Positions 8,429 to 33,097 of a stretch of DNA of 64,000 nucleotides are shown here, piece after piece (the first letter of the stretch is position 1; every line of letters starts with the position of its first letter). The notes below the pieces were generated by a model, which searched no databases, was not told where the DNA came from, and saw only the letters and a list, made by a program, of their open reading frames with translations. Position numbers and translations under genes: made by a program. The stretch is from Rhodothermaceae bacterium bin80 (GTDB taxonomy: Bacteria; Bacteroidota; Rhodothermia; Rhodothermales; Bin80). The stretch spans positions 2,536 through 66,535 of the forward strand of contig MPNB01000007.1 in assembly GCA_002238805.1 (NCBI GenBank), written 5' to 3'.

Positions 8429-8656
8429 ATGGCCACAGTAGAACAACGCTTTAAATCTCTCCTTGAGCAGCACCTTGGCATAAGTGATCCAGGGGCAATG
8501 AATTCCACGCCCTCGGCCTTGGGGGTCAATTCCGTTGATGCCGTTGCTTTCCTGAAAGAAGTTTGTAGGGAGTTTAATGTTGACATTAAGCCTGAGGATG
8601 CTGCAAAATTTGAAAGCATGCAGGCGGCTGTCGACTATGTTGAAGCCACTGGTTAG
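8429..8656 (+). CDS. free-standing acyl/peptidyl carrier protein-like protein
   Basis: The product is 75 aa and acidic, with a four-helix-like layout. It has a phosphopantetheine-site-like motif LGVNSVDAVAFL, where the Ser sits in the position of the canonical DSL Ser. Confidence 0.6.
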   Translation: MATVEQRFKSLLEQHLGISDPGAMNSTPSALGVNSVDAVAFLKEVCREFNVDIKPEDAAKFESMQAAVDYVEATG

Positions 8657-9009
8657 TACTTGTTGGTGACGGGGTCTTATTTCTCGTAGATTCCTCCTTG
8701 GTGATTCTCCTAAGGAGGCGGGGGTCTCCTGTAGTATCGTTGCTTGGTAATAGTCAGCGAGGTCATATACCCCCTGTATCAGGGGGTATCGGGTCGAAGC
8801 GTATGCTGCTGGTTATGATGTGCGAGGAGTTTGGAGGAGTGCGGGAAGGTGCCGCTCGTTTGTGATCCTGAATCACTTTGTCGAAGAATGGCGAAACCAC
8901 TAACAGGAGCCAATGGCAATCGAGGGCAGGGATTGGGTCGTGTCTCGCCACAACTCTGCTCAGGAGGTACATCTGCATGACGGTTCCTAAGTCATTCAGA
9001 AATGCCCCG

Positions 9010-9402
9010 CCGGTATTTCAACGTGCCCAGGAGAATTTTCGGCGAGTCACCGATGATCGCTACACGCTCATTATTCCACAAGATAACAGCTTCCGAGCGC
9101 GGAATAATCTGCGAGAGCGCGATTTTGATTTAACTGAATGATCCAGTGCTACGAAAGTCCAACTCCTTTTGTCTGTACGGCTTGCCTTCGTTGAGACTCG
9201 AGAAACCAACTACCGCCTGCCAATCACTCTGGATGAAACGCTTACCAACAGCGATGACAAGCGTGCACGGGCAGCCATCAAAACGATGACAACCTTAGCT
9301 GCTGACCGTCAGGTATTTTATTTTACGGCTCAGCAGGATGAAGTAGGTAAGTGGAGAGAGTTCGTTCCCGAAGATCTCCTGAAAGTATATTCCATTGGGT
9401 AG
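9010..9402 (+). pseudogene. C-terminal remnant of an SMC/YhaN-like AAA ATPase, with an in-frame TGA
   Basis: ORFs 8878-9141 and 9169-9402 share one frame and are separated by a TGA at 9139-9141. The read-through sequence shows an ABC-type signature (SSATKVQLLLSVRLAFVE) and Walker B/D-loop (LPITLDETLTNSDDKR). The roughly 600-aa N-terminal part is missing. Confidence 0.55.
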
Positions 9403-9817
9403 GAAGTTGTAGCCAGAGATCTTAAAGCGGATGCTGATACAAGGGGTGGCCTTCAGTCAGGAATTATTAAGGCGAACATATTGCGGAGTGGCACGCCCAG
9501 AGGTTTTCAGAGGGCTCTACCGCAATTAGTGGGAAAGAAGCGGGCGTGAAGGAGATCACGAAGTGGCGGAGATGTTTCAACGCCATCTCGCTGGCGTGTG
9601 TAATGCACTTCTTCATGAACAATCCAGTGCCAGAGCCGAGCGAATCCATAGAAAGATCCATGAGGTCAGAACAGTAGGCAGAGGATACAGAAAATTCGTA
9701 AACTCTGGATTCGCAATTCTTTTTTCTGCTGAGACCTATATCCACAATATTCGCGGTAGAACCATGTTTTGTAACCACTACGAGGTTCTTGAGAAACTGA
9801 TCATTCACACTGAAAAC

Positions 9818-10582
9818 ATGCCCTCAAACACTCTCAGAACGACGTTGACCTTCAATATATGGACCTTTGGAAGAGGCGCCACTTGGATGCTTTTTTCAAT
9901 TGCATTGTTTACTTCATGTGGGATGTCAGACGAAATTCGATTATTTAATGGAGAGTCGCTTGAAGGCTGGGAGGGGCCACCTACTGTTTTCAGGGTGGAG
10001 CAGGGAGCCATTATTGGGGGCACCTTAGAAGTACCTTTAGATGAAACTGGTTATTTGTGTACGGAAGAGACCTATGACAATTTTATTTTAACGTTGTCCG
10101 CAAAATTTGTAACTCATGGTGCAAATATTAATGGAGGCATAAGCTTTAGAGCTAAACGCGTGACCAACTCCAATGAAGTAATGGGATACCAAGCTGACAT
10201 AGGATATTTGGATAGCAATGCGATCCCCATATTCTCTGATTACACACCTGCTGATACAACAGGCCTGTATCCTCTATGGGGTAGCTTGGTAGATGAAAAT
10301 CGGGATGATATCACACGATACCCGAGACCTGATATTTTTCCTGCCATAATCCTTAAGGTGGCGAAAAAAGAGCTGATTGAGGAAATTATTGACCCGTATG
10401 ATTGGAATGAGATTGCTATCAAGGCCTCTGGAATAGAAATTGAAATTAAAATCAACGGAGTTACAACGGCTGAATTTGCAGAAACCTACGATATACCTTC
10501 AAACGGTAGTATATGCTTACAAGCACACTCAGGAGGACCATATGAAATATGGTATCAAGACATTGTAATAAACCAATTATAA
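9818..10582 (+). CDS. DUF1080 (3-keto-disaccharide hydrolase-like) lipoprotein
   Basis: An internal ATG at 9818 gives a signal with lipobox (MLFSIALFTSCG). DUF1080 hallmarks follow: LFNGESLEGWEG, FRVEQGAIIGG, YDNFILT, NGGISFRA and GYQADI. The upstream 85 codons of the track ORF look non-coding. Confidence 0.8.
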   Translation: MPSNTLRTTLTFNIWTFGRGATWMLFSIALFTSCGMSDEIRLFNGESLEGWEGPPTVFRVEQGAIIGGTLEVPLDETGYLCTEETYDNFILTLSAKFVTHGANINGGISFRAKRVTNSNEVMGYQADIGYLDSNAIPIFSDYTPADTTGLYPLWGSLVDENRDDITRYPRPDIFPAIILKVAKKELIEEIIDPYDWNEIAIKASGIEIEIKINGVTTAEFAETYDIPSNGSICLQAHSGGPYEIWYQDIVINQL

Positions 10583-10833: not shown

Positions 10834-13800
10834 ATGATCAATAAACCTAAGCAGCAGCCCATAGCCATAGTTGGCATGGCATGCCGTTTTCCCAATGCTG
10901 GAGATTTACGGTTATTCTGGGAGTTGCTTCGCACCGGTAAAAGTGGAATAACAGAGGGTACCCCAGGGTCCGGGAAGGGACGCATCGGTGAGCTATTTTC
11001 AGATCCCGTTGAAAATAAAGCATGTCGGTTTGGCGGCTATCTCTCTGATCTTGAGCTCTTCGATGCATCTTTCTTTCGCATCTCACCCGTTGAAGCTCAG
11101 TTCCTCGATCCACAACAGCGTCTAATGTTGGAGGTCTGCTGGCATGCATTAGAGGATGCTTGCATCAATCCCGAGACGCTGCAGGGAAGTCGTACGGGGG
11201 TATACGCTGGAATCAGCAATAATGAATATCGAGCCCTAGTCCTTAATTCGTCGGGTATTAATGATCCAGCTACCAGCCTGTATGCAGTAACTGGAACCTC
11301 TTTGAATACGGCTATAGGACGCGTTTCATACGCTCTTGGACTAGGAGGACCTGCTTTAGCGATGGATACAGCGTGCTCTTCATCGCTTGTTGCAGTACAT
11401 CAAGCCGTTTCTGGGCTACAGCAAGGAGAAACAGATCTCGCACTGGCTGGCGGCGTACACACGATTTTTTCAGGGCAGCTCTTGGAGTTTCGGGCAAATG
11501 CCGGTATGCTGTCACCTGATGGACGCTGTGCCACATTTGATGCGGCAGCAAATGGATACGTACGGGGAGAAGGCTGTGGAATCGTCGTCCTCAAGCGTTT
11601 TGATGATGCGTTATCTGATGGAGATCGCATCTGGGGGGTTATCCGCGGCGTAGCCCTTAATCAGGACGGAGCAAGTCCAGGCTTGACTGTGCCAAGTAGG
11701 CAAGCCCAGGAACAGGTGATTGCTGAGGCTCTGCGCAATGCAGGTATTGCACCTACGGATGTAGACTATGTAGAAGCACATGGGACGGGAACCGAGGTAG
11801 GTGATCCAATTGAAGCGCAAGCGGCTGGAACCGCATATTCGGACGGGCGCGATCATAGCAATCCTGTACTCATAGGTTCAGTCAAAACAAACATTGGTCA
11901 CTTAGAGGCAGCCGCTGGAGTAGCAGGAATCATCAAGGTGATCCTCTCCATGCAGCATGGACTCATTCCACAGCACCTCAATTTTAACACCCCAAGCCCG
12001 CGAATACCTTGGGCTCAACTTCCCCTCAAGGTAGTCTCCTCTTCTATGGGATGGCCACACCAAGGTATGCGTCCAAAACGTGCCGGGATTAGCGGCTTTG
12101 GCTGGTCTGGCACAAATGCACATCTCATTCTTGAAGAATTTTGCCCCGAAACTCAGGAAGATAAGCTGGCGAGTCCTCTTGGACGTGCAATCACTGTTGA
12201 ACCGATACTTCCGAAAGAACTACCGCTCTGCAAAGAGCAAAGCTATCTTCCGCGCACAGTGCGCCTACTTCCCTTGGCAGCCAAATCATCTACGGCTCTA
12301 AGTGCAGGTGTCGCGAATTATCTAGAGTGGATTGAGACGCTTGAAAACGATCAATCTAACGGGAATGGACTTCCATCCTCATTGCTATCTGACATGGCAT
12401 GGTCGGCTAGCGTAGGCAGAAGTCATTTTCCACACCGCTGTGGTATTGTATTTGAATCCACTGCACAGTTGTGTTCGAAATTAAAAGAATTGAGTAGCAA
12501 GTGCCCTGAGGTACAGTCCTACACATCACCAAAGGTAGCCTTTCTTTTCACAGGACAAGGCGGCCAGTGGACACACATGGGTGAAGTGCTTTATGAGCGT
12601 GAGCCTGTCTTTCGCTCTGTATTAAAGCATCTGGAAGAAGTATTTCTCGAAGAGAGGGGAGTCTCACTCCTTGATGTCATGTTTGGGCGGAGTACCCAGG
12701 ATATCAGTGCGACGCAGTGGGCTCAGCCGGCCATCTATGCGTTGGAATGTGCGCTCGTAGCACTCTGGGAGAGTTTAGGTGTCCACCCGGATGTGGTAAT
12801 AGGGCACAGCGTGGGAGAATTTGCTGCAGCTTCCAGTGCTGGGATTTTCAGCCAAGAAGCAGGGATGCGTCTCATCACGCGGCGAAGCAAAGTGCTTCAT
12901 TCGCTTTCCGGATCAGGGGTCATGGCAGCCATATTCGCGCCAAGATCAATGGTGGAAGAGAGTGTTCAGGCCTACAACATGAAGGTTCAACCTGAAGAGC
13001 TTTCCATCGCAGCCTATAATGGGGCCCATCAGGTCATTAGTGGAACACCGGAAGCGGTCAAGCAAATATTACAACAATTTGAATCCAACAATGTGCGGGT
13101 AAGTCGCCTCCGTACCTCTCACGCATTCCATAGTCCACTGGTCGAACCTGCTCTGGATGAATTAGAAAACATATTTGACGGGATAGAAATACGCCCTCCA
13201 TCCCAGACTCTGATCAGTAATGTGACGGGACAATTGGTTGCATCTGATGAACGATTAAATTCTGACTACTGGCGTAGGCATGCACGGCAGCCAGTCAACT
13301 TCGCTCAAGGTGTGCAGACGCTTTCCGGGCTGGGGGTGAATATTGCCATAGAAGTGGGCCCACACTCGGTATTGGGTCCCATGCTTCTCTTTGCGTGGCC
13401 GGATGCATCAGGAAATAACACAAAACCTCCGTCTCCTCCCGTCACACTACCAAGCGTAGTGCGCCCGTCTAATAAAGAAGGTGAATCTGATCACCACGTA
13501 GGTACTGATTTCTTACATGCCGTAGCGCGGGCATACGAATCGGGGCTTCCCATTACATTCGAAGGACTTTACGCTGGCGAGTCACGGCGTCGAATCTCAA
13601 TACCCGCGTATCAATTTGAACGTGAATATCACTGGATCTCACGCCGGCAGTCAAGACAGCGAGGTGCTGGCTCCCCCTTGCTCGGAAGCAGGCATGAATC
13701 TGCAAGTGGCGAAATTATTTTTGAATCCGAGCTTTCCCCCTCCGATCCATCATGGCTCTCCGAACATTTGGTATATGAACAAATCATCGCGCCCGGTGCA

Positions 13801-16800
13801 CTTTATGGGGCGTTAGCGGCTGCAGTCATCTCAGAAGAAAACTATGGGCAAGTAGTCATTGAAGAGATGCAGTTCTATAGTCCCATGTTATTTGCACTAC
13901 CAAAGAATGGCGAAGAACGGCTGCGAAAAGTGCAGGTATCTATTAAAAAAGAGGCCGAAGATGAACCGGCTACCCTCCGCATATACAGTACGTCTGATGA
14001 AGAGAATACATGGACGTTACATGCAGAATGTCACCTGTCACGAAATACGCAATCATTCCCATCGTCGCAGGATATCTCTCTAGATTCACTCACTGATAGC
14101 CTATCGAAGGTCGATCTGACGGACTTTTACAGCTCAAAAGCCCAGGTTGGAATTGATCTTGGATATTCCTTTCGGACACTCAATGAGCTTTACCAGGATA
14201 ATGGGGAGGCAGTTGCTGAAGTATCACTTTCACCAAGTCCCCTTCGTACTGTACTCCACCCGATGCTTTTAGATGGTTGTTTCCAGGTTATGTCCGCAGC
14301 CAGCAGCGAAGTGCGCAAAGGAATAGATACGGCCTATCTACCATTCGGTTGGAAACAGTTAATCCTCTTTACGGCTCTACCTGAACAGATTGTCTGTCAT
14401 GCGAGCCTCAGAGATACTCCAGATCATCATAGTTCAGAGAATGGCTTGGACACGACACCAGAAGTGCTCACAGGTGAACTCAAGCTCTATGATCTGAACG
14501 GAAAAATGATTGGAGAGGTACGTGGATTCGTCGCAAGGCGCGCAACACGTTCCACCATGATGTCCGCAACACAAACCAGAGCAGATCTTCTCTATGAAGT
14601 GGTCTGGCGTGAAACGGCTGCGATCACGGGAGCGCAGCCAGCGGACTTTCTTGTAACTCCAACGCTTGCCGCTGATAGATCTGAACCCTATGCCAAATAT
14701 CTAGAGGCCCTCGGTGTGGGATATGATAGCCGCCTCGGACTGCTGCACGATCTCCAAAAACTAGCCTATGCATTTGCGTTATCTACATTAAAAAAACTTG
14801 GATGGGAGCGCATACAAAACGGCTCTTGGGAAGCGGAAGCGCTGCGAGAAACCTTGGGGGTCTTACCAGCTCATCAGCGACTGTTTCGCCGAATCCTGGA
14901 GCTTCTGTCCAGTGCAGGCCTACTGGAGGAGACGGATCGTCACTTCCGTGTGTTGGTCCCGACTGGAAACCCGCTTCCGGCTATCATACCGGTTGACAAA
15001 GAGCAGTTTGCACTGGATATGCTTTCGCAGTATCCGCATGGCTCTGTTGAAATCCAGCTATTTCAGCGTTGTGCCAAGGTACTTCATCGTGTTCTCATCG
15101 GAAATGAAGATCCCTTGGAGGTCCTCTTTGGCGGCGAAGAGCCGACACCGGCAGATCTGTACTCGAAAGCCCCGGTTGCGCGTGCGGTGAACCAGGTATT
15201 GAGTGATGCAGTCAGCATTGCGATTGAAAATCTTCCAGGTGGGAGAAGGTTGCGGATCCTCGAAGTTGGCGCAGGCACAGGATCTGCAACAACTGCAGTA
15301 TTACCCTGCTTATCAGGATGTTCCTATGACTACATGTATACGGATATATCTGCAGGCTTTTTTACGGAGGCTGAAGCACTTTTCGGTGGAGAAGAAGCGT
15401 CCATGCAATACGGAATGTTGGACATCGAAAAAGATCCGCTGCAGCAAGGATTCTCTGCGCATGGTTATGATCTGCTCATTGCTTCAAATGTATTGCATGC
15501 CACGCGATACCTGGATGACACGCTGAAGCATTGCCGCATGCTGTTAGCCCCATCGGGACAGCTTTTAGCCTTGGAAAACTTTCGGCCAATGGGATGGCTG
15601 GATTTGACCTTTGGGCAGTTGGATGGTTGGTGGAGATTTGCTGATACATACCGTCCTCACCATGCATTAGCCAGTCCTGATGTTTGGGAGGAGGCTCTGC
15701 TTAATGCAGGGTTTGTAGACATTGCTGCATTCGGTCTACACCCTGAACATGAGCCAGACCGCGGTATTATCATGGCTCAGAACGCTGCAACGATCCTACC
15801 TCCTGCTGGCATGTGGGTGCTCTTGGGCGATTTCAGAGGAATGGCTGGGGAACTAGCCACCGAGTTAGTATCGAATAATCAGCAGGTAGTGCTCGCTACA
15901 GGAGAAAATATTACCTCACCAGAGTCACAAGAGAAGACCGATTCTGTTCGATACACTTATGTAGAGTCTACATCTCGAGAAGCATGGAGTGAGATGTTTT
16001 CCAACCTACCATCGGATATTCCATTGTATGGGATCGTGCATCTAGTGGCCCTTAATGGACATGGGATTGAGGCGGAAACATCAGATATAAAAGATGATGT
16101 GCAAAAGCAGGTAGCAAGTGCATTAGCACTCTCACAGGCACTGGTTGATGAAGATATTACCGTGGAAAAGGGGGTGTTCTATGTGACGAGTGGAGCACAA
16201 ATACTTGAAAAAGAGCAAGGAGGTAAACCGGCTGGAGCGGCATTGTGGGGTCTTGGCAAGGTGATCGCGCATGAGGCAGATTCTTTAAAGGCTCGACTCA
16301 TTGATCTTGAAACAAGCGATTCATCGTCACTCCCAGTGCTGATCAATGAACTGCTGTATCCAGAGGATGAAAATCATATTGCCTATCGCTATGGAAAGCG
16401 GCACACCGCACGACTCGTGCGTACGGCGAACAATACTGATCATCTGATCTTACCTCAGAAAGAGCCTTGGCGTATTCAACCGAATGAAGGAGGATCCATA
16501 GATGATCTGGCCATTGAATTGTTCTCACGTTCGCCATTGGATGGGAGACAGGTACGCGTAGCAATTGAGACAGTGGGACTGAATTTTTGGGACCTGTTCC
16601 GCACCATTGATGTGGTCCAAGAAGGTCTCCTTGGTGGCGAAATGTGCGGAAAAGTCGTGGAAATAGGACCTGATGTATCAGAGGTTTCTGTGGGTGATGA
16701 TGTGGTTGGCCTTGCCTTTGGCACATTTGCCTCAGAGGTGATCACGCACGAAGCCATGCTTGCCCCAGCGCCGCGTGGCATCTCTAAAACAGCTGCCGCA

Positions 16801-19800
16801 ACGATTCCTACCACCTTCGCTTCAGCGGAGTTATCCTATCAATTAAGTGGAATCGCTCCCGGAGAGAAAGTGCTTGTTCATGCAGGTGCCGGTGGAACCG
16901 GGATGGCCGCGGTATATCTTGCACAGGATGCAGGTGCCGAAGTGTTTGCAACTTGCAGCCCGCCGAAGCAAGCATTTCTTCGCTCCATCGGGGTGGAGCA
17001 TGTACTTAATAGCCGTACGATTGAATTCGGCGCAGACATTCTAGATATCACAAATGGCTGTGGTGTAGATGTGATCGTGAACAGCCTGACCAGCCCTGGA
17101 TTCATTGAGGCGAGTCTGTCATGCCTGACTCATGGCGGGCGTTTTGTTGAACTGGGAAGAGCAGATATCTTGACAGAAGAGGAGATGGCCGAGCTTCGGC
17201 CAGATGTGCAGTACTCCATCCTTATGCTGGATGTTCTGAAAGAAAGCGCTCCAGAGAAAGTTGGTCATGCGTTGAAATCAGTGATCCGACGATTCGAAAC
17301 AGGCAAGTTGAATCCACTTGTGCACACACAGTGGCCTATCGCAAGTGTGGGACAGGCTATGCTGCATATGCGGAATGCCCGCCATATCGGAAAAATTGTG
17401 CTCGCAATGCCTCCTCTGCAAAGCGGTAGGTTGCGAGCAGATCGTACATATCTCATCACCGGAGGGCTAGGCGGAATCGGATCAGCTCTCGCTCCCTTCC
17501 TGATCGAGCGTGGCGCAGGGACGATTGTCCTGAATGGTAGGCGTGATCCAGATCCTGACGTCAGCGAGATGATTCGTGAGCTTCAAGGCAAGGGACACGC
17601 TGTGCATGTGGAACTTGCCGATGTGACTGACAGTGCTGCATTTGAGGATATGCTGATGCGCATGGAGCGGGATTTACCTCCCCTTGGCGGAGTGATTCAT
17701 AGTGTGGGGGTATTATCAGATGCATCGCTCACAAATATGAGTTGGGAACAGTGCGAGTATGTCCTATGGCCCAAAGTGCTCGGAGCATGGAATTTACACA
17801 GGCTGACCATGCAGTATGACTTGGACATGTTTGTATTGTTTTCCAGTGCCGCGGGTGTAATCGGTAACCGGGGACAAGCCAATCATGCCGCTGCAAACGC
17901 ATTCTTGGATCAACTTGCACTTATGCGTCGCACCATGGGACTCCCGGGGCAAGCTATTGCGTGGGGAGCATGGTCTGGAATTGGGGAAGCAGAAGAACAT
18001 CGGGAACGGATTGAGAAGAGCTTGGCTGCGCGCGGTGTAAATTGGATTACCCCCGAGATGGGCTTTGAAGCGCTTGATACGCTGCTTAGGCAGGACTTAT
18101 GTACGTCGGTTGTGACCTCTGTAGACTGGTCAGTTTTCGGCGAGTCAATGCCTGTACAAACCCCTTTGCTGGCGGAACTGTTTGAGAGTATCTCGCAGCC
18201 CGAGCAAGAAGAACCAGTCCTTGCTGGCAACTTTATTACACGTTTGCGCGAATTGCCTGATTCGGGACGGGAAGCCCACGCAATCTCTTTCCTGCAACAA
18301 GAGATACAAGCGGTGCTTCGCCTTCCGAAGGCACCTGAGTCGGAGACGGGATTTTTTGACTTAGGGATGGATTCCTTGATGGCGGTGGAAGCACGCACCC
18401 GCCTCAATCGTGCCTTCGCCGGGGAATATGTTGCATCAAACACCATCATATTTGATTATCCCAACATCACCAGTCTTGCACGCCACTTGGTGGATGAACT
18501 ATGTGATGTAGAGACTGCTCCCCTCCCCGAGGTACTGTCCTATGAAGTACACTCGGATTCAATCGCAATCGTAGGCATGGCGTGTCGTTTTCCAGGTGCT
18601 CCAAATCTGGAAAGTTTCTGGCAATTGCTTGAGGAAGGTGGAAATGCAGTATCGGACTCTCGTCCGCCAGATCGAGATTGGCATGGAATGACTGGAGATC
18701 CGGCAGCCGATCGGGATATATTTCGGAAAGGAGGATTTGTTGAGGGAATTGAGAAGTTTGATGCAGAGTTCTTTGATATTCGCCCGATTGAAGCCCGATC
18801 CATGGATCCATGCCAGAGAATGGTGCTCGAAACTGCATGGCATGCACTTGAAGAAGCTGGAATCAATCCGCAGACATTAAAGGGCAGCCCCACGGGGGTC
18901 TATATCGGAACTGGCAACAGTGAGTATCGTGAGGTTATGAGGATACGGGGGCGCACTGACGGGGTGATCGGAACGATGCAAAGTATTATCCCCAGTCGGC
19001 TTTCTTTTTTTCTGGGGCTCACGGGGCCTGCCGTGTCCGTTGATATGACCTGTGCATCCTCATTAGTCGCCATTGACCAGGCAAACTCTGCGCTCATTCA
19101 CGGAAAAATAAATTTAGCTCTTGTGGGTGGCGTAAAGGCAAACCTATCTAATCCAGTGACGCAGTTCATGCAGGAATTGGGGATGCTTTCGGAGGACGGC
19201 TGTTGTCGAACCTTTGATAGCGAAGCAGATGGTTTTGTGCGCGGAGAAGGGTGTGGCATGATGATCCTGAAGCGACTCAGCGACGCCCGGGAAAGTGGGG
19301 ATCGTATATGGGGCATCATCAAGGGAGCATCTGTTAACCAGAGTGGAGCTAGCGCGGCACTCACGGTACCCAACGGAAGCGCACAGGAAGAAGTGATTCG
19401 CAATGCGCTCTCACAGGCGGGATTTGCCGCCTCCGAGGTAGATTATCTTGAAGCACATGGAAGTGGATCTCAACTAGGTGATCCAGTTGAAGTGCGCGCT
19501 GCCTCCGCCGTATACGGAGAGGAAAGACCGACGGATCGGCCACTTCTACTTGGAACGGTCAAAACAAATATCGGCCATTTAGAATGTGCATCTGGAATCG
19601 CTGGAGTGATCAAGGTGATCTTAGCGATGCATCACCATGTCATCCCACGCCACCTTCACTTCAACAATCCGAGTTCATTCATAGATTGGGATGCATTGCC
19701 CGTTCGCGTGGTGGCTAAGAAGTTGGACTGGCCCATTGCCACGGATCGTCCACCCAGGGCGGCCGTGAGTGGTTTCGCAATCACAGGCACGAATGCACAT

Positions 19801-21075
19801 GTAATCGTAGAGGGGTACGCAGATACGGATCTCAAAGATTATGATGAGCCTGGTGCGGGTTCAATTGCAGAGGGAGGTCGTTTTGCGGTACAGATGCCTG
19901 AACAGAGCGAACAAAATTGCACTGAAGCGTGGTTCTTGCCGCTTTCAGCGAAATCATATCCTGCGCTCAAAGAACTTGGACAGCGATATATCGGCTGGTT
20001 GAATCAACGTGCTCAGAGTGCCATGGGAGATGAGAGGATAGGTACAAAACTGTTGTCCGATATGGCATGGACAGCGTGTACAGGCCGCAGTCATTTTGCT
20101 TGTCGCGCCGGCATTGTCTTTAATTCCGTTTCATCTCTTCGGGCGCGCTTGAACCACCTCATCAACTCCCCCAAAGATGGAGAGGTTACATCTGCGTCAT
20201 CTACCGTTGCGTTCACGTTCGGTGAGCAGAATATCCATGCCGCACAGCGTACAAACGCATTATGTGTATTGCCGCCAATATCCAGCCAATTCACGGATCG
20301 TATTGATGAAGTGATACAGGAAATCCATAATATTTCCTTATCCGATTTTCTATCTGGTGATGCAAAAGATCCCGCACTGTCTCCTGTCTTCCACTTCTTG
20401 GCACATGCATGTCTTACCGAGCTATGGAACCGCGTTGGTGTTCTACCATCATTCGTGATTGGAACGGGGATCGGGAAGATAGTATCGGCCTATGCAGCGG
20501 GAGTGATCTCGCTGGATACGGGCATTCGCATTGCAGTTCGATATGGCGAGTTCAGTGTTTCCGATGTAAAGGAGACGAGATCTATAACACAGGATATAAA
20601 TACAATTTTAGATGAGGCTGAGTGGTCTGTACCGCAGGTAACTATCCTTGGAAAATCTCCTAAGGACACCGTAGAAATGGGGCGAAGCATGGACCCAGAA
20701 CTCTGGATTGATCGGTTGCTACATTCTTCCACCAGTGATGACAATCTTGCTGAACTACTAACAAAGCATTCAATTGATGTAGTGATTGACATGAACGGGA
20801 TGCAAGAAAGTCTGGAAAAGGATACCGGAGAAGCCTCCAAGTCCAATTCTGAGAGAATGTTGGAATCAGGCATCGGAGGGCCTGTACTGATCGCAGGTAT
20901 AAAAGGTGAATGTGAAAAGGAGGGAGATACGGCTACAGGCTTTCTTTATGCGTTGGCTGCTGCGTATGAAGCGGGGCTCAGCGTCGATTTTACAGAACTA
21001 TTCGCAGGCAGGTGGTGCGATCGTATTTCCCTGCCCCTTTACCCATTTCAACGTCGCACGTACTGGGTTGAATAA
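10834..21075 (+). CDS. type I polyketide synthase, KS-AT-DH-cMT-ER-KR-ACP-KS-(degenerate AT)
   Basis: This is a single 3413-aa ORF. All domain signature motifs were read directly from the translation and are listed in the domain sub-features below. Confidence 0.95.
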   Translation: MINKPKQQPIAIVGMACRFPNAGDLRLFWELLRTGKSGITEGTPGSGKGRIGELFSDPVENKACRFGGYLSDLELFDASFFRISPVEAQFLDPQQRLMLEVCWHALEDACINPETLQGSRTGVYAGISNNEYRALVLNSSGINDPATSLYAVTGTSLNTAIGRVSYALGLGGPALAMDTACSSSLVAVHQAVSGLQQGETDLALAGGVHTIFSGQLLEFRANAGMLSPDGRCATFDAAANGYVRGEGCGIVVLKRFDDALSDGDRIWGVIRGVALNQDGASPGLTVPSRQAQEQVIAEALRNAGIAPTDVDYVEAHGTGTEVGDPIEAQAAGTAYSDGRDHSNPVLIGSVKTNIGHLEAAAGVAGIIKVILSMQHGLIPQHLNFNTPSPRIPWAQLPLKVVSSSMGWPHQGMRPKRAGISGFGWSGTNAHLILEEFCPETQEDKLASPLGRAITVEPILPKELPLCKEQSYLPRTVRLLPLAAKSSTALSAGVANYLEWIETLENDQSNGNGLPSSLLSDMAWSASVGRSHFPHRCGIVFESTAQLCSKLKELSSKCPEVQSYTSPKVAFLFTGQGGQWTHMGEVLYEREPVFRSVLKHLEEVFLEERGVSLLDVMFGRSTQDISATQWAQPAIYALECALVALWESLGVHPDVVIGHSVGEFAAASSAGIFSQEAGMRLITRRSKVLHSLSGSGVMAAIFAPRSMVEESVQAYNMKVQPEELSIAAYNGAHQVISGTPEAVKQILQQFESNNVRVSRLRTSHAFHSPLVEPALDELENIFDGIEIRPPSQTLISNVTGQLVASDERLNSDYWRRHARQPVNFAQGVQTLSGLGVNIAIEVGPHSVLGPMLLFAWPDASGNNTKPPSPPVTLPSVVRPSNKEGESDHHVGTDFLHAVARAYESGLPITFEGLYAGESRRRISIPAYQFEREYHWISRRQSRQRGAGSPLLGSRHESASGEIIFESELSPSDPSWLSEHLVYEQIIAPGALYGALAAAVISEENYGQVVIEEMQFYSPMLFALPKNGEERLRKVQVSIKKEAEDEPATLRIYSTSDEENTWTLHAECHLSRNTQSFPSSQDISLDSLTDSLSKVDLTDFYSSKAQVGIDLGYSFRTLNELYQDNGEAVAEVSLSPSPLRTVLHPMLLDGCFQVMSAASSEVRKGIDTAYLPFGWKQLILFTALPEQIVCHASLRDTPDHHSSENGLDTTPEVLTGELKLYDLNGKMIGEVRGFVARRATRSTMMSATQTRADLLYEVVWRETAAITGAQPADFLVTPTLAADRSEPYAKYLEALGVGYDSRLGLLHDLQKLAYAFALSTLKKLGWERIQNGSWEAEALRETLGVLPAHQRLFRRILELLSSAGLLEETDRHFRVLVPTGNPLPAIIPVDKEQFALDMLSQYPHGSVEIQLFQRCAKVLHRVLIGNEDPLEVLFGGEEPTPADLYSKAPVARAVNQVLSDAVSIAIENLPGGRRLRILEVGAGTGSATTAVLPCLSGCSYDYMYTDISAGFFTEAEALFGGEEASMQYGMLDIEKDPLQQGFSAHGYDLLIASNVLHATRYLDDTLKHCRMLLAPSGQLLALENFRPMGWLDLTFGQLDGWWRFADTYRPHHALASPDVWEEALLNAGFVDIAAFGLHPEHEPDRGIIMAQNAATILPPAGMWVLLGDFRGMAGELATELVSNNQQVVLATGENITSPESQEKTDSVRYTYVESTSREAWSEMFSNLPSDIPLYGIVHLVALNGHGIEAETSDIKDDVQKQVASALALSQALVDEDITVEKGVFYVTSGAQILEKEQGGKPAGAALWGLGKVIAHEADSLKARLIDLETSDSSSLPVLINELLYPEDENHIAYRYGKRHTARLVRTANNTDHLILPQKEPWRIQPNEGGSIDDLAIELFSRSPLDGRQVRVAIETVGLNFWDLFRTIDVVQEGLLGGEMCGKVVEIGPDVSEVSVGDDVVGLAFGTFASEVITHEAMLAPAPRGISKTAAATIPTTFASAELSYQLSGIAPGEKVLVHAGAGGTGMAAVYLAQDAGAEVFATCSPPKQAFLRSIGVEHVLNSRTIEFGADILDITNGCGVDVIVNSLTSPGFIEASLSCLTHGGRFVELGRADILTEEEMAELRPDVQYSILMLDVLKESAPEKVGHALKSVIRRFETGKLNPLVHTQWPIASVGQAMLHMRNARHIGKIVLAMPPLQSGRLRADRTYLITGGLGGIGSALAPFLIERGAGTIVLNGRRDPDPDVSEMIRELQGKGHAVHVELADVTDSAAFEDMLMRMERDLPPLGGVIHSVGVLSDASLTNMSWEQCEYVLWPKVLGAWNLHRLTMQYDLDMFVLFSSAAGVIGNRGQANHAAANAFLDQLALMRRTMGLPGQAIAWGAWSGIGEAEEHRERIEKSLAARGVNWITPEMGFEALDTLLRQDLCTSVVTSVDWSVFGESMPVQTPLLAELFESISQPEQEEPVLAGNFITRLRELPDSGREAHAISFLQQEIQAVLRLPKAPESETGFFDLGMDSLMAVEARTRLNRAFAGEYVASNTIIFDYPNITSLARHLVDELCDVETAPLPEVLSYEVHSDSIAIVGMACRFPGAPNLESFWQLLEEGGNAVSDSRPPDRDWHGMTGDPAADRDIFRKGGFVEGIEKFDAEFFDIRPIEARSMDPCQRMVLETAWHALEEAGINPQTLKGSPTGVYIGTGNSEYREVMRIRGRTDGVIGTMQSIIPSRLSFFLGLTGPAVSVDMTCASSLVAIDQANSALIHGKINLALVGGVKANLSNPVTQFMQELGMLSEDGCCRTFDSEADGFVRGEGCGMMILKRLSDARESGDRIWGIIKGASVNQSGASAALTVPNGSAQEEVIRNALSQAGFAASEVDYLEAHGSGSQLGDPVEVRAASAVYGEERPTDRPLLLGTVKTNIGHLECASGIAGVIKVILAMHHHVIPRHLHFNNPSSFIDWDALPVRVVAKKLDWPIATDRPPRAAVSGFAITGTNAHVIVEGYADTDLKDYDEPGAGSIAEGGRFAVQMPEQSEQNCTEAWFLPLSAKSYPALKELGQRYIGWLNQRAQSAMGDERIGTKLLSDMAWTACTGRSHFACRAGIVFNSVSSLRARLNHLINSPKDGEVTSASSTVAFTFGEQNIHAAQRTNALCVLPPISSQFTDRIDEVIQEIHNISLSDFLSGDAKDPALSPVFHFLAHACLTELWNRVGVLPSFVIGTGIGKIVSAYAAGVISLDTGIRIAVRYGEFSVSDVKETRSITQDINTILDEAEWSVPQVTILGKSPKDTVEMGRSMDPELWIDRLLHSSTSDDNLAELLTKHSIDVVIDMNGMQESLEKDTGEASKSNSERMLESGIGGPVLIAGIKGECEKEGDTATGFLYALAAAYEAGLSVDFTELFAGRWCDRISLPLYPFQRRTYWVE
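10858..12135 (+). other. PKS domain KS1 (ketosynthase), boundaries approximate
   Basis: Motifs are IAIVGMACRFP, DTACSSSL (Cys codon 11374-11376), EAHGTGTEVGDP, KTNIGHLEAAAG and GTNAHLILEE. Confidence 0.85.
12532..13390 (+). other. PKS domain AT1 (acyltransferase, malonyl-type signature), boundaries approximate
   Basis: Motifs are FLFTGQGGQW, GHSVGEFAA (Ser codon 12808-12810) and HAFHS. Confidence 0.8.
13670..14550 (+). other. PKS domain DH (dehydratase), boundaries approximate
   Basis: It shows LSEHLVYEQIIAPGA, an HxxxGxxxxP-type motif with Glu in place of Gly (His codon 13765-13767). HPMLLDGCFQ is also present. Confidence 0.7.
14880..15790 (+). other. PKS domain C-methyltransferase, boundaries approximate
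   Basis: SAM motif I LEVGAGTG lies at 15259-15282. Downstream motifs are YDLLIASNVLHAT and LLAPSGQLL. Confidence 0.75.
16462..17412 (+). other. PKS domain ER (enoylreductase), boundaries approximate
   Basis: The context is MDR-type (VAIETVGLNFWD), with the NADPH motif LVHAGAGGTGMAAV (HAGAGGTG at 16879-16902). Confidence 0.75.
17440..17990 (+). other. PKS domain KR (catalytic subdomain) with His in place of the catalytic Tyr, boundaries approximate
   Basis: The Rossmann motif is YLITGGLGGIG (17458-17481). The active-site stretch reads FSSAAGVIGNRGQANHAAANAFLD, whereas the consensus is ...NYAAAN...; the His codon CAT lies at 17884-17886. Confidence 0.75.
18280..18502 (+). other. PKS domain ACP, boundaries approximate
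   Basis: The motif is GFFDLGMDSLMAVE, with the Ser codon at 18373-18375. Confidence 0.8.
18562..19815 (+). other. PKS domain KS2 (ketosynthase), boundaries approximate
   Basis: Motifs are IAIVGMACRFPGAPN, DMTCASSL (Cys codon 19051-19053), EAHGSGSQLGDP, KTNIGHLECASG and GTNAHVIVEG. Confidence 0.85.
20200..21072 (+). other. PKS vestigial AT-like domain plus post-AT linker, boundaries approximate
   Basis: It is colinear with AT1 but the catalytic motifs are lost. FTFGEQN replaces FTGQGGQW, and GTGIG (20461-20475) replaces GHSxG. There is no HAFH/YASH motif. The protein ends with the post-AT linker LPLYPFQRRTYWVE. Confidence 0.7.
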
Positions 21076-21342: not shown

Positions 21343-22395
21343 ATGAATCGACGCGAATTTACACAACGTACAGTCCAAGCCGCCGGCTTAGCCCTATTTC
21401 CGGCAAATATTCTCATCAAACAGACTGAACCGGACGAGATCATTGGTCACGGTGACTACCGTTACCGTGTGCACAGGATCTGGGGGCAACAGGACCCAAG
21501 CCTCGTGCCCGTTAATAACTGCCACGAAATGGTTCAGGACAGCGCAGGACGCCTGATTATGATTGGCGACGAAACACGCAATAATGTGTTGATCTACGAC
21601 AGGTCAGGTAAGATACTTGATACGTGGGGCAGTGAGTATCCCTATGGGCATGGCCTAACGCTCTGGGATGCTGGTGGAGAGGAATTCCTGTTCATTTGCG
21701 ATAACGGTTTCGATGGAAACCCGCAAGTTGTTAAGACCACATTAGATGGTCAGGTAGTTCTTAGGCTTCCCCATCCACGCGAGGTCGGAGCATATGCAGA
21801 GTCTGACGCCTATCATCCAACAGAAACCGCTGTGGGACCGAATGGGGATATTTACGTGGCCGATGGTTATGGTTCACAATGGGTTCTCCAGTTTAATTCC
21901 ATTGGCGAGTACATCCGAAAGTTTGGAGGGAGGGGTGATGACGATCATCAATTTCAAACGGTACACGGTGTATGCGTAGATCTGCGTGATCCAGATACAC
22001 CATCTCTGATATGCACGAGCCGGGCGCATAATGCCTTTAAGCGGTTCTCTCTCGATGGAGACTATCTCTCGACGATCTTTCTGCTTGGTGCATATGTGTG
22101 CCGTGCAGTGATTCATGGAGAGATGCTGTATTCAGGTGTGTGTTGGTCGAGGCTGCGTTACTTAAATCAGACGCCTGATTCCGGCTTCGTAACGATTCTG
22201 GACAAGAACGATCGCGTGGTTTCGAATCCTGGTGGCACCCTGCCCGTCTATGAAAATGGGGTTCTCCAGCTCATGTTGCAGGATGAGCCCATTTTCAACC
22301 ACTGCCACGATGTTTGCGTGGACACAGACGAAAACTTGTATGTTTGTCAGTGGAATGCGGGCAAGACTTATCCTATCAAGCTGGAGCGGATTTAG
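21343..22395 (+). CDS. Tat-signal six-bladed beta-propeller (NHL / peptidyl-alpha-hydroxyglycine lyase-like) protein
   Basis: The Tat-like N-terminus is MNRREFTQRTVQAAGLALFPA. Propeller-type motifs repeat through the protein (GDIYVADGYGSQWVLQF, NLYVCQWN). Confidence 0.7.
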   Translation: MNRREFTQRTVQAAGLALFPANILIKQTEPDEIIGHGDYRYRVHRIWGQQDPSLVPVNNCHEMVQDSAGRLIMIGDETRNNVLIYDRSGKILDTWGSEYPYGHGLTLWDAGGEEFLFICDNGFDGNPQVVKTTLDGQVVLRLPHPREVGAYAESDAYHPTETAVGPNGDIYVADGYGSQWVLQFNSIGEYIRKFGGRGDDDHQFQTVHGVCVDLRDPDTPSLICTSRAHNAFKRFSLDGDYLSTIFLLGAYVCRAVIHGEMLYSGVCWSRLRYLNQTPDSGFVTILDKNDRVVSNPGGTLPVYENGVLQLMLQDEPIFNHCHDVCVDTDENLYVCQWNAGKTYPIKLERI

Positions 22396-23996
22396 CAGCC
22401 TTTTAAGAATTGTACGTGCAGACTACGTGCGCTGCTGGCTTCAAAGCGTATCACCGTCCCCGTGGTCTTATCCGTTTCCATGCGGATGACGGGCATGAAC
22501 CAAGTGTCACTTACAAAGACATGATCAACAGCCTTCGTCAAAGTTAGCTTTTTGCCACGGGGACCACTTGCGACCAGTACACTGTCCTGAGCACTTATCG
22601 AGTAGGATATGCCAAGCTCTTCGCTCGTGTAGCATCCTTCGTACATAGACAGCATCGTGTCCTTTGACGGTGAAAGGCGTGTGGCATTTAATCCCTGTGT
22701 AGATGCGTTGATGACTGAACCCGAAGAATCGCGTGTGAATGTGATCGTCAGGTTGAGTGCTGGAATGCGGAGGGAGTCTACACCAATTGCTTGAACGGGC
22801 ACACGGGGGGTGGGAGGCCAGTGAGCGGAAAGTGATTCTCCTCTGGCGATTAACTGCAGAACGTATGCCTTTCCGAAGTCATAAACTCCCGCATAATCAC
22901 TTAGTGGAGGTACATCGCTCGCAGTAACAGGAGGCTGATGTGGCGGAGCCATGGATGCATCCAGGTAATGCTCTGCAATGCGCTGTGCCATGGCTGGAGC
23001 GTTCATAATGGCCGAATTGCTGAGCACAATTGCGGTGAATTCATGATCGGGTATTCGAAGGATCACTGTCCGAAAACCTGCCCATCCGCCTGAATGCGAG
23101 ATTGTATTCAATCCCCTGTAAGTACCTCTAACAAGCCCGAAGCCATAGGCAATTTCAGTACCATCGTCCAGCTGTCCCTGCGAGTTCATCATAGCGTGTA
23201 CAGCGGGGGACCCTACTTTTTGTTCTTCAAGGTTCCGTACCCATTTTATGAGGTCCTCGGTCGTCGTGTGCAAGGAGCTTGATCCGAGGGCCATTAGTCC
23301 GTTACCAATTCGCTGGATTTCGCCGAATTGTGAGGTGTAACTGATTACGCGTCCGGGAATGATCTCTTCGTGATCGTCCTGAAAATGCGTCCGTGTCATG
23401 TCGAGCGGCGTAAATATTCTTTCCTCCGTGAAGGCGCGGAAGGATTTTCCACTCAAGCGCTCAATCAGTAATGCAAGGATAGTGTAACCTGTATTGGAGT
23501 AACTGTATTGCGTGCCTGGGACGAAATTCAATGTGCGCTGGTGTTTGATAAAAGTGGATATTTCCTCCATGGAGATCACGTCCTCCATGTTGCGTCCTGC
23601 CATTGCAAGCATTCCTGGCCAGTCTCGAAGACCGCTGGTATGATGAATGAGATGCCGAAGGGTGATTGTATGCCCAAAATCCGGCAACTCTGGTAGATGC
23701 GTCCGGATGTCATCGTCAAGTGCAATCACCCCTTCATCAACGAGAAGTGCAATAGCAAATGCACAGAATTGCTTCGATACCGAGGCGACATCGAAAACGC
23801 TAGTTGATGTGATGGGTATACCGTGTTCCAAGTTTGCCATGCCATATCCCTCGTGATGCAGGACTGCCCCGCGATAGAGTACGACTACTGCGGCCCCTGG
23901 ATTTTTATTCGTATCCCAAGCACTGAAAATTTTATCCACCTGTGCATAGGCTGGTGCATGTGCAATCAGGAAAAGACAAATTAGGACCCGAATCAT
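22392..23996 (-). CDS. serine hydrolase, beta-lactamase (class C/EstB-like) family, with C-terminal extra domain
   Basis: It has a signal peptide, the SxxK nucleophile motif (ASVSKQF), YSNTGY and HSGG. Confidence 0.85.
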   Translation of the reverse strand: MIRVLICLFLIAHAPAYAQVDKIFSAWDTNKNPGAAVVVLYRGAVLHHEGYGMANLEHGIPITSTSVFDVASVSKQFCAFAIALLVDEGVIALDDDIRTHLPELPDFGHTITLRHLIHHTSGLRDWPGMLAMAGRNMEDVISMEEISTFIKHQRTLNFVPGTQYSYSNTGYTILALLIERLSGKSFRAFTEERIFTPLDMTRTHFQDDHEEIIPGRVISYTSQFGEIQRIGNGLMALGSSSLHTTTEDLIKWVRNLEEQKVGSPAVHAMMNSQGQLDDGTEIAYGFGLVRGTYRGLNTISHSGGWAGFRTVILRIPDHEFTAIVLSNSAIMNAPAMAQRIAEHYLDASMAPPHQPPVTASDVPPLSDYAGVYDFGKAYVLQLIARGESLSAHWPPTPRVPVQAIGVDSLRIPALNLTITFTRDSSGSVINASTQGLNATRLSPSKDTMLSMYEGCYTSEELGISYSISAQDSVLVASGPRGKKLTLTKAVDHVFVSDTWFMPVIRMETDKTTGTVIRFEASSARSLHVQFLKGC

Positions 23997-25330
23997 TGAT
24001 TCAATTTTTTAAACCAAACCTTATGGGTGCGCCCGGATGAGGCGCTAAAACCGAGTAAACTGTCCCCTTCCTGTTTGAACTCAAGAGTCCTCAGGTACCA
24101 AGCGTCACTGTCAAAAGAATTCAATCCAGTTCGCGACAGTGTTGCCAGCCTGCCCCGGCGGGAGTCCAAGTGCAGTGTATCGGCTTCCATGGTGATGTAT
24201 AGTGTACTGCCAAGCTCCTCGCTGTAGTAAGTGCCCTCGTACGCATTCAGGTGCTTGTCGTCGATAAACAAAGCGGCAATTTTCATTGCCATATCAGAGG
24301 GATTGAATTCTTCTAGATTACCAAGCACTACAATACCCAGATCGTACTCAGGGAAGCGACCGGCCCAGGCGCGAAACCCTCGATGGGAGCCGCTGTGCCC
24401 TATGGATCGCGTGCCTCTGAATTGTCCATGGGTGAGTCCAAATGCATATGCAAGCGTGTCACCATTTGTAAGTATACCGCGGGTGTGTGCCAGGTCACGT
24501 GTTTTCTCTCCACCGATTGTGCCATGCTTCAGCGCAGTCAGCCATTTCCCCAGGTCCAATGCGGTTGTATACAACCCACTTGCACCGACGCTGGAGTAGT
24601 TCACACGCTGTGCTTTATAGCCATTAGGTGCAGTGATATAGCCAGAGGCAACATTGGGGATCACGGTCCCTTGCTCCGATCTGAATTGGGATTTGGTCAT
24701 CCCCAGAGGCAGGAACAGACTGTCACGTGTCCAGTCGCTGAATGACTGTCCACTCACACGTTCAATAATTTCTGCCAACAGCGTATAACCGGAGTTGCTG
24801 TACAGGTATTCTGTTCCCGGATCAAAATTGAGGGCACGTTGACGGTAGACCAAGCGCAGGATATCCTCCTTCGTAATTACATCATCCATACGGTACCCGG
24901 TTAATGAGAGTAACCCAAATTCGTCGCGCAGTCCGCTTGTGTGATGTACCAGGTGCTCTGTGGTAATGGGGGGTGTGAATGCATTTAGCTCAGGTATGTA
25001 GTCTGTCACGGGGGCATTGAGTGAGATTTTGCCATGTGAGGCAAGAAGTGCAATACCGTACGCTGTAAACTGCTTGGACACACTCGCCACCAGGAACACC
25101 GTTTCAGGGGTGACAGGGATATTGTACTCGAGATTGGCTATACCGTAACCTTTGGAAAAGTGTACGCTGTCTCCACGCATTATCACGACAGCTGCCCCGG
25201 GGACATCGGGCTTGTTTATGGAAGAGAACAATGAGTCTACTTGGGTCTCCAATGACTGGCCGAAGGCAAGATGGCCGAAGGCAAGATGGCCGAAGGTCAG
25301 GAAGCATAGAATTAAAATCTTGCGTACCAT
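23993..25330 (-). CDS. serine hydrolase, beta-lactamase family (paralogue of the neighbouring gene)
   Basis: It has a signal peptide and the motifs SVSKQF, YSNSGY and HSGSHRG. Its stop overlaps the start of 22392-23996 by 4 nt. Confidence 0.85.
   Translation of the reverse strand: MVRKILILCFLTFGHLAFGHLAFGQSLETQVDSLFSSINKPDVPGAAVVIMRGDSVHFSKGYGIANLEYNIPVTPETVFLVASVSKQFTAYGIALLASHGKISLNAPVTDYIPELNAFTPPITTEHLVHHTSGLRDEFGLLSLTGYRMDDVITKEDILRLVYRQRALNFDPGTEYLYSNSGYTLLAEIIERVSGQSFSDWTRDSLFLPLGMTKSQFRSEQGTVIPNVASGYITAPNGYKAQRVNYSSVGASGLYTTALDLGKWLTALKHGTIGGEKTRDLAHTRGILTNGDTLAYAFGLTHGQFRGTRSIGHSGSHRGFRAWAGRFPEYDLGIVVLGNLEEFNPSDMAMKIAALFIDDKHLNAYEGTYYSEELGSTLYITMEADTLHLDSRRGRLATLSRTGLNSFDSDAWYLRTLEFKQEGDSLLGFSASSGRTHKVWFKKLNQ
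25258..25297. repeat. 15-bp tandem repeat (about 2.7 units: GGCCGAAGGCAAGAT) within a signal-peptide coding region
   Basis: The sequence read directly is ggccgaaggcaagat ggccgaaggcaagat ggccgaaggt. On the minus strand it encodes FGHLAFGHLAFG. Confidence 0.85.
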
Positions 25331-29757: not shown

Positions 29758-30035
29758 TTCGTTTTTTTTGTGATCCTTAGGATGGCTAAGGGCCCCATGT
29801 AGGTGCAGCGAATGGGAACTCGACTTCCGTGGTGGAGATCTTCCGTTAGCCGGGTTCAAAGTTCAGGCGATTTGCGATTATTTGAGAATTGAGTTAAAAT
29901 TTTCAAGTACCGTTGCCGGCATGACAAACGAGTTTTCGATAATAACACAGCGACCACGAATGTATGGAGTGCAAGAATCAGGCAGGACTCATGAGCTGCC
30001 GTACGACAAGGGTAGGACTAGTTTAGTTGTCAGGT
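29262..30035. repeat. left copy of the direct repeat bracketing the defence island (intact 3' end of the SDR gene plus ~280 bp downstream)
   Basis: It aligns by eye with 39893-40425, for example ccggagcttcttgcaagg, ctcaatatcgggtca, atgtccaaaggtgc, gatggctaagggcccc, ctcgacttccgtggtggaga, agttttcgataat.acacagcg and atgagct.c.gta.gacaaggg. Confidence 0.8.
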
Positions 30036-30257
30036 TCCGGTTATTCGGGGTCGAATGATCTATATTTCGATTAGCACGTAGCTCAATCGAATACGTTTAG
30101 GCAGGATTGAGAACACGGAAAGTTTGAGCCCAATGAATGTCAAAACTCGATCATCTGGTAGCTTTCTTGATCCAAATTTCTGGCACGGCAGACTTATGGA
30201 CAGACTGAATATCTCTTCGAGTGTAAAAAAGCTACGCAATCGTATGCAGAGTTTAGA

Positions 30258-33058: not shown

Positions 33059-33097
33059 AAATTCGGTTTAGACTAGCTTCGTTTTCATGATCAGGTT

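Follow-up and report, generated by a model that had tools for sequence, protein, structure and literature searches.

A 64,000-nt stretch of contig MPNB01000007.1 from Rhodothermaceae bacterium bin80, here called the window, contained a type I polyketide synthase (PKS) gene on the forward strand at positions 10834..21075, a genuine reading frame of 3413 residues. The product was quite probably a mono-modular PKS of SupA type, belonging to a Rhodothermales symbiont of sponges that has not been cultured, and it would work with a stand-alone acyl carrier protein (ACP) encoded upstream. By its sequence features, the PKS is placed as a new member of the known, biochemically uncharacterised Sup family, in a reduced configuration. 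The identification of the PKS drew on Pfam domain calls, orthologues, and the ratio of nonsynonymous to synonymous substitution rates (dN/dS). An earlier note on this DNA had described the gene as a solitary, single-gene locus of a kind unusual in this lineage. It had missed the 75-aa ACP gene at 8429..8656, whose product belongs to the ACP family found with this PKS elsewhere. The locus is also no one-off, as the PKS is a member of a large family, with 58 metagenomic loci and conserved partner genes, that is concentrated in sponge metagenomes.

The PKS was composed of a ketosynthase (KS), an acyltransferase (AT), a dehydratase (DH), a C-methyltransferase (cMT), an enoylreductase (ER), a ketoreductase (KR), an ACP, a second KS, and a degenerate AT (AT°). 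The E-values of the Pfam matches reached 1e-156, so that chance matches were of no concern, and the calls agreed with the order KS-AT-DH-cMT-ER-KR-ACP-KS-(AT-like) that had been read beforehand from motifs for a 3413-aa type I PKS. The Pfam spans were residues 8-384 for the KS, 570-847 for the AT, 948-1239 for the DH (PS-DH), 1476-1577 for the cMT (Methyltransf_12), 1905-2190 for the ER (ADH_N/ADH_zinc_N), 2205-2381 for the KR, and 2487-2552 for the ACP (PP-binding), followed by the second KS and then a second, weaker AT stretch. The domain calls contained no loading module in the PKS. The G+C content of the gene, 0.47-0.52, was like that of the flanks.

A metagenome scan with an alignment of the cMT gave 58 PKS loci, with 54-96% identity in the cMT region, and the active sites were highly conserved among them. 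The first KS (KS1; 10855..12153, as all following domains on the forward strand) contained Cys181, His316, and His356, together with the DPQQR and HGTGT motifs (as LDPQQRL and EAHGTGT), and its Cys-His-His triad was kept in 51/51 family loci. The active AT (AT1; 12541..13443) carried the malonyl-type motifs GHSVG and HAFH, with the Ser present in 53/53 loci. The DH (13666..14568) had His978 in LSEHLVYEQIIAPGA and Asp1147 in LLDGCFQ (conserved in 54/54 and 57/57 loci, respectively). The cMT (15031..15753) had the S-adenosylmethionine (SAM) motif ILEVGAGTGS, His1555 in NVLHAT, and Glu1581, and both of these residues were found in all 58 loci. The ER (16501..17418) was recognised by Pfam and by its NADPH motif, HAGAGGTG. 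The integrated ACP (18292..18489) carried Ser2514 in LGMDSL (50/50 loci). The second KS (KS2; 18559..19821), with the motifs DPCQR and HGSGS, also kept the Cys-His-His triad on motif reading, as Cys2740, His2875, and His2915; the Cys was conserved in 50/50 loci and the two His residues in 47/48 and 48/48. KS2 is predicted to be competent for condensation. With a single integrated ACP, an active Cys in both KSs, and a DH of PS-DH type, the enzyme had none of the tandem ACPs, the KS-CLF pair, or the FabA-type DH of the polyunsaturated fatty acid and heterocyst-glycolipid synthases.

The C-terminal part (19861..21072) was resolved by alignment into a KS-AT linker, the degenerate AT°, and a post-AT linker, which formed the end of the PKS. 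The AT° had GTGIG in place of the active-site motif (Ser replaced by Gly), and its small subdomain was deleted; ~75 residues were missing, the HAFH region among them. Only 4 residues followed the post-AT-linker motif YPFQRRTYW before the end of the protein, and no ACP followed KS2 in cis. A PKS that stops right after a KS-AT didomain could be a fragment of a larger multimodular line, ending in the middle of a split module whose DH, KR, and ACP partner is located elsewhere or has been lost. This explanation is extremely improbable. Every homologue examined ended at the same post-AT-linker motif, and the KS-AT° terminus was therefore regarded as a conserved design and not a truncation. The Ser of the terminal AT was replaced in 38/40 family loci (Gly in 30, Asp in 7, and Ala in 1). 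No further PKS gene was found in any locus with downstream flank, and no PKS remnant was found in any frame after the stop codon of the window PKS. The core of the AT° was wholly lost in locus L006 (16074..17850), and also in L028 and L068; in these only the two linkers (KS-AT and post-AT) followed KS2 before the PKS ended, and another gene began within a few bases. The AT° thus appears dispensable apart from its linkers.

The stand-alone ACP (8429..8656, forward strand) was 75 residues long, was presumed to be the SupB equivalent, and carried the phosphopantetheine Ser in GVNSVDAVAF. Its gene was located 2.2 kb upstream of the PKS, and its Pfam PP-binding match scored 29.6 bits against a cut-off of 20.8. 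Its scores were under the NCBIfam AcpP cut-offs, and it was accordingly not taken for a housekeeping ACP. It was homologous to the free ACPs that lie beside the same PKS elsewhere (E-values from 1e-13 to 1e-18, 38-45% identity), and a profile search with the free ACPs found at least 337 relatives of 75-76 aa. Three relatives picked solely by ACP similarity each adjoined a PKS of 3413-3444 aa. The KS2-AT° stop codon was directly followed, on the same strand, by the start of the ACP gene in at least 13 loci, as expected for a split KS-ACP module. Since KS2 was intact, its AT was dead, and no ACP followed it, KS2 and the free ACP would form a minimal second module, and it is plausible that KS2 and the upstream ACP explain the odd C-terminal KS-AT° end.

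The partner genes were first seen beside homologues in long-read contigs. A search with the DH-cMT region gave fragments ~50% identical, labelled as metagenome-assembled genomes (MAGs) of Chloroflexi, Alphaproteobacteria, and Latescibacteria. Four contigs (L005-L008) contained the same PKS architecture split by frameshifts, and their recurrent neighbours encoded an NCS2 permease of ~580 aa, an Abhydrolase_6 protein of ~300 aa, an ACP of 75-76 aa, and a phosphopantetheinyl transferase (PPTase) of Sfp/HetI type. In these long-read assemblies from ENA the PKS was distributed over 2-4 open reading frames (ORFs), whereas it was a single ORF of ~3420-3440 aa in the short-read assemblies and in L009-L011. 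Errors of assembly, rather than true pseudogenes, probably account for the splits; frameshifts have also been reported in 15% of supA amplicons (PMC4245539). Besides the 58 loci, eight more homologous loci were obtained through protein look-ups. Protein searches with partial queries matched only fragments of up to 1568 aa, none of which was named 'Sup'.

Partner genes were counted where the PKS had flanks of 4 kb or more on each side, which was the case for 25 loci. An ACP was present in 21 of them, an alpha/beta-hydrolase in 22, an NCS2 permease in 18, and an Sfp/HetI-type PPTase in 10. Loci L016 and L017 contained five co-directional genes in the order PKS-ACP-PPTase-hydrolase-permease. Among the well-flanked loci, an ACP without a hydrolase was found only in the window's own species (L013; the same held for L012 and L001-3). 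In an internal KS tree, the KS1 orthologues and the KS2 orthologues formed separate clades. The SupE-like NCS2 permeases of 576-598 aa (L007, 8144..9901; L006, 17854..19584; L005, 5463..7259) had a conserved C-terminal extension of ~150 aa past the transporter domain. One relative, P0207, was annotated with PF13581, an anti-sigma-factor kinase-like ATPase domain, and anti-anti-sigma-factor ORFs have been described beside a SupE-like permease (PMC3908369). The extension may be a regulatory module.

The family was concentrated in sponge metagenomes. The assemblies LXNI, LXNJ, and MKWU, which are metagenomes of the sponges Sarcotragus foetidus, Petrosia ficiformis, and Aplysina aerophoba (Horn et al. 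2016; PMC5099237), accounted for 44 of the 58 loci, and each of the three metagenomes held 13-18 distinct ones. The remaining 14 came from JGI data sets, and none of the 58 family loci was found in the paired seawater assembly LXNH. The locus L013, from S. foetidus, was 96% identical to the window.

These features matched the sup ('sponge symbiont ubiquitous PKS') clusters (PMC4245539, PMC3908369, PMC9426513). Sup PKSs have been described as 'small monomodular polyketide synthases' that dominate the KS amplicons of sponges, with >100 variants in one specimen, and they have been proposed to make mid-chain-branched fatty acids (PMC4245539). An attribution of sup to Poribacteria was withdrawn and the producer was left unresolved (PMC4245539), and SUP-like clusters occur in sponge MAGs of several unrelated phyla (PMC9426513). 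The window PKS shared with the sup cluster supA-E (Fieseler et al. 2007; Hochmuth et al. 2010) the small mono-modular type I design with a cMT, here as one full module plus KS-AT°, and the primer motifs DPQQR and HGTGT in KS1, which are weak markers because they are common to most cis-AT PKSs. Its relatives likewise showed a huge diversity in high-microbial-abundance sponges, as seen in the three sponge metagenomes and in their absence from the paired seawater assembly, and they occurred in unrelated phyla. The homologues' ACP, PPTase, hydrolase, and permease partners were also alike. SupE is a permease (PMC3908369 Table 1), and since the permease is the fifth gene of the cassette, the five-gene arrangement fits supA-E. 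The window differed in its host, which belongs to Rhodothermales (Rhodothermota); PMC9426513 does not include this phylum in its list for SUP-like clusters. It also kept only the ACP near the PKS, placed upstream across 2.2 kb, with the hydrolase, PPTase, and permease, SupE included, unlinked or absent. The PKS was still filed in the Sup family, because the loss of partners was a matter of gene linkage within a single lineage and did not bear on the PKS. SupA reportedly has the order KS-AT-DH-MT-ER-KR-ACP-KS, with an external ACP.

Several points weigh against this assignment and the function drawn from it. Membership in the family was judged by architecture, habitat, diversity, and the neighbouring genes rather than by an alignment or a KS tree with SupA, and in the literature found no product of a Sup PKS had been demonstrated, so that the product is a proposal only. 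The hydrolase present in 22/25 family loci was missing, and no homologue of the hydrolase, PPTase, or permease was detected in the 64-kb window even at permissive thresholds. Mobile-element debris (~1.2 kb) and an unrelated DUF1080 gene separated the ACP from the PKS, which makes their co-expression uncertain. The KR carried His2351 where characterised KRs carry the catalytic Tyr; if the KR were inactive, a fully reducing scheme would require a ketoreductase in trans. We infer the choice of starter, the number of cycles (one pass and not several), what KS2 does, the loading of the free ACP in trans, and what becomes of the product.

The KR (17431..17988) retained an intact NADPH motif, Lys2314, Ser2338, and the LSD (B-type) motif, and His2351 (window 17884..17886) was located in GQANHAAAN; the corresponding motif of SpnB is GQGNYAAAN. 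The His was found in 50/50 family loci, and the Lys, the Ser, and the NADPH motif were kept in the 50 or 51 alignable loci. In a sample of 495 KR domains, drawn from 150 diverse PKSs, this position was Tyr in 464 and His in 17. These domains came from a representative-library search with the KR region, in which giant multi-KR PKSs ranked first, and the search did not delimit the family. Most of the 17 His-type KRs shared a GQ(A/T/S)NHAAAN-type motif, and many were located in cMT-containing modules that also had a DH and often an ER. A dead KR was considered less likely, since the His variant occurs in modules of multimodular PKSs with DH and ER and since the Lys, Ser, and NADPH motif are conserved. 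These observations argue for an active variant rather than a dead domain, and it may be an undescribed one that is tied to alpha-methylated substrates; no description of a His-type KR was found. A short-chain dehydrogenase/reductase (SDR) encoded at 28978..29757 was rejected as a compensating trans-KR, because SDR genes adjoined the PKS in only 1 of the 58 family loci.

When KS1-AT1 was compared with solved structures, the best match was CurL (3e-209), and many bacterial modular PKSs matched at 1e-150 or better, whereas LovB gave 2e-108 and animal fatty acid synthase (FAS) ~1e-91. The window PKS resembled cyanobacterial cis-AT modules (the CurL KS-AT, PDB 4mz0; CurJ and JamJ) in this best structural match and in its in-line DH-cMT-(ER)-KR cassette, and the His-for-Tyr KR also occurs in cMT-containing modules of multimodular PKSs. 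The curacin and jamaicamide modules, however, belong to collinear multi-protein lines with loading and release, whereas the window encoded a single module with an extra KS, a dead AT, and a free ACP. Only one AT was active, no thioesterase (TE) or reductase domain was present, and no other PKS gene was found in the window or beside the homologues examined. The fungal highly reducing (HR) PKSs LovB and LovF share the order KS-AT-DH-cMT-ER-KR-ACP and the SAM-derived methyl branches on a reduced chain, but they are eukaryotic, far less similar in the KS-AT region, and have no second KS or free ACP. The likeness to fungal HR-PKSs proposed in the earlier note was thus architectural only, since the KS-AT was of bacterial cis-AT type by sequence. 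That note had also considered that homologues might sit in well-characterised clusters with a known product; a named cluster type, sup, was indeed found, but its product is only proposed.

Mycocerosic acid synthase (MAS) and the MAS-like PKSs of mycobacteria also use a single fully reducing module to make methyl-branched lipids from fatty acyl primers, and their ER-KR region was a good match. In MAS, which lacks a cMT, the branches derive from methylmalonyl-CoA. The window PKS had a malonyl-type AT1 (HAFH) in place of a methylmalonyl AT, together with a cMT, and its methyl group must therefore come from SAM. The sponge widespread FAS-like PKS, SwfA, is a second sponge-specific mono-modular family found across phyla. 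SwfA is composed of KS-AT-DH-ER-KR-ACP, without a cMT, a second KS, or DPQQR and with HATGT, and its partners are SwfB (R-ST) and SwfC (radical SAM) (PMC3908369). None of the distinguishing features of SwfA was found in the window PKS.

These comparisons also bear on an iterative operation of FAS or HR-PKS type, in which the module would start from a short primer, cycle many times to build up the entire branched chain, and methylate only in programmed rounds, as LovB, LovF, or MAS do, and in which KS2 and the free ACP would serve only for off-loading or priming. The domain order is that of iterative HR-PKSs, the ER-KR region had MAS-type iterative PKSs among its better structural matches, the PKS lacks a loading module, and mono-modular sponge PKSs have been discussed as iterative or as performing a single extension (SwfA discussion, PMC3908369). 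The KS-AT, however, was closest to non-iterative cis-AT modules, as the values for CurL and LovB show, and a strictly conserved, intact KS2 with a dedicated second ACP would be superfluous for a purely iterative synthase. We consider an iterative operation unlikely.

The PKS gene was found in several closely related genomes. An identical protein was present in the NCBI MAG GCA_026713585.1 and in ENA and JGI assemblies. The PKS arrangement of the window occurred in at least three assemblies. A 97% orthologue was located on chromosome OZ219799.1 ('MAG: Rhodothermales bacterium'), in a chromosome-level sister-strain assembly of 2.84 Mb. Between the two strains the PKS genes differed by 209 substitutions, without any indel over 10,239 nt, and with a dN/dS of 0.22. 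The ratio was 0.06-0.27 for most catalytic domains, 0.36 for the ER, and 0.56 for the linker-AT° part, in which selection is relaxed (omega 0.56). The PKS is intact and is kept under purifying selection despite the missing linked partners.

These values weigh against another explanation, according to which the PKS is a decaying orphan that no longer makes a product, since the sup cluster was broken by mobile elements and lost its hydrolase, PPTase, and permease. The absence of these three genes over 64 kb, when a hydrolase was present in 22/25 loci, agrees with decay. So do the orphan ORFs and the piece of a transposase that separate the ACP from the PKS, and the breakpoint of the sister strain, which differs and lies 550 bp ahead of the PKS. 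But the 10.2-kb ORF was free of stops and indels across diverged strains under the selection described above, all its catalytic residues were intact, the Ser of the ACP was kept, and PPTases and thioesterases often work from unlinked loci. A decaying remnant is therefore a very improbable reading of the locus.

For the SupA-type PKS with its upstream ACP, the following course of synthesis is proposed. KS1 would be primed directly by a fatty acyl thioester of medium or long chain length, supplied by primary metabolism. AT1, with its malonyl-type motifs, would load malonate, and KS1 would carry out the condensation. The cMT, whose motifs were seen, would methylate the alpha-carbon of the beta-ketoacyl-ACP with SAM, at a stage assumed from other PKS cMTs. 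The KR in its His variant, the DH, and the ER would then reduce the chain fully to a 2-methylacyl-S-ACP. KS2 would take over the 2-methylacyl chain and condense it with malonate on the free ACP, which may be loaded in trans by AT1 or FabD. The resulting 3-oxo-4-methylacyl-ACP would be finished or elongated by the type II FAS, or released by the alpha/beta-hydrolase of the cluster where it is present. The end product would be a mid-chain methyl-branched fatty acid for membrane lipids. Because the hydrolase, PPTase, and permease are unlinked in the window, activation and release must use genes elsewhere in the genome.

A more specific scenario for the Rhodothermales lineage is put forward only tentatively, as rather doubtful. 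The sup system may have been stripped to a core of PKS and free ACP, held under purifying selection without linked hydrolase, PPTase, or permease. The chain would then not be hydrolysed or exported but passed on the free ACP into the type II FAS and the lipid acyltransferases, as in a 'branch-inserting' plug-in module, and the His-for-Tyr KR would be an undescribed catalytic variant for alpha-methyl-beta-keto substrates.

Sup PKSs are the most abundant PKS genes of sponge microbiomes and swamp PCR screens for drug-relevant PKSs. The producers and the product of the Sup enzymes had stayed uncertain; with the window, a Rhodothermales MAG lineage is seen to carry an intact member. The family-wide picture includes a conserved five-gene cassette, a strictly conserved KS2 whose AT is dead, a free ACP dedicated to the PKS, and a KR of His type. 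These features sharpen a testable model for the origin of the mid-chain-branched fatty acids of sponges, which are used as biomarkers. An apparently orphan megasynthase was thus assigned to a known kind of enzyme, and the chemistry of the family remains a proposal.

The interval between the ACP and the PKS (8657..10582) is a rearrangement hotspot. Its first part, a degraded spacer (8657..9817), contained no intact gene, only a C-terminal fragment of an ISL3 transposase (~9563..9700) and short orphan ORFs. The Pfam match to DDE_Tnp_ISL3 was located at the N-terminus of the ORF that starts at 9563, and the ORFs at 8878..9141 and 9169..9402 had no Pfam match. No remnant of a hydrolase or PPTase was detected in the spacer by tblastn, even at E<5. 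The second part (9818..10582, forward strand) encoded a DUF1080 (3-keto-disaccharide hydrolase-like) lipoprotein, recognised by Pfam PF06439 and by a lipobox, LFTSC, after the ATG; this gene is unrelated to the pathway. The transposase fragment read in frame into the DUF1080 ORF from a GTG at 9563, and the true start was probably the ATG at 9818. In the sister strain (L004), homology with the window began only at position 10283, within the DUF1080 gene, which was truncated there and preceded by unrelated sequence (L004, 1..1733). Scans for promoters and terminators gave nothing above the shuffled expectation.

The other neighbours of the PKS encoded an NHL propeller protein, which had a Tat-like leader, and two proteins of beta-lactamase fold that carried signal peptides. 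Pfam and the signal peptides agreed with the neighbourhood listed in the earlier note (a DUF1080 lipoprotein, an exported propeller, and exported hydrolases), and its statement that no loading, release, PPTase, CoA-ligase, or reductase gene was nearby held over 64 kb, in which no TE, PPTase, CoA ligase, or reductase gene was found. The two beta-lactamase-fold serine hydrolases, of 534 and 445 aa, were encoded in tandem on the minus strand (22392..25330), each with a signal peptide. They were followed by a gene for a PIG-L deacetylase with a leader, and the three look like envelope or glycan processing proteins unrelated to the PKS. LovF is off-loaded by a cytosolic beta-lactamase-fold acyltransferase. 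The two window proteins were rejected as LovD-like off-loading acyltransferases because, by comparison, both are secreted and neither is a conserved partner, being absent among the neighbours of the inspected homologous loci.

Further downstream, a block of ~10 kb (30012..39895, with genes at 30258..39207 on the minus strand) was missing from the 97% sister strain L004. It encoded a PADLOC 'Mza' defence system with MzaB-E (HATPase, Z1 helicase, DUF4420, and AIPR), and also a C5-cytosine methylase and a Vsr endonuclease. This block is a strain-specific defence island, and its G+C content is lower (0.44-0.48).

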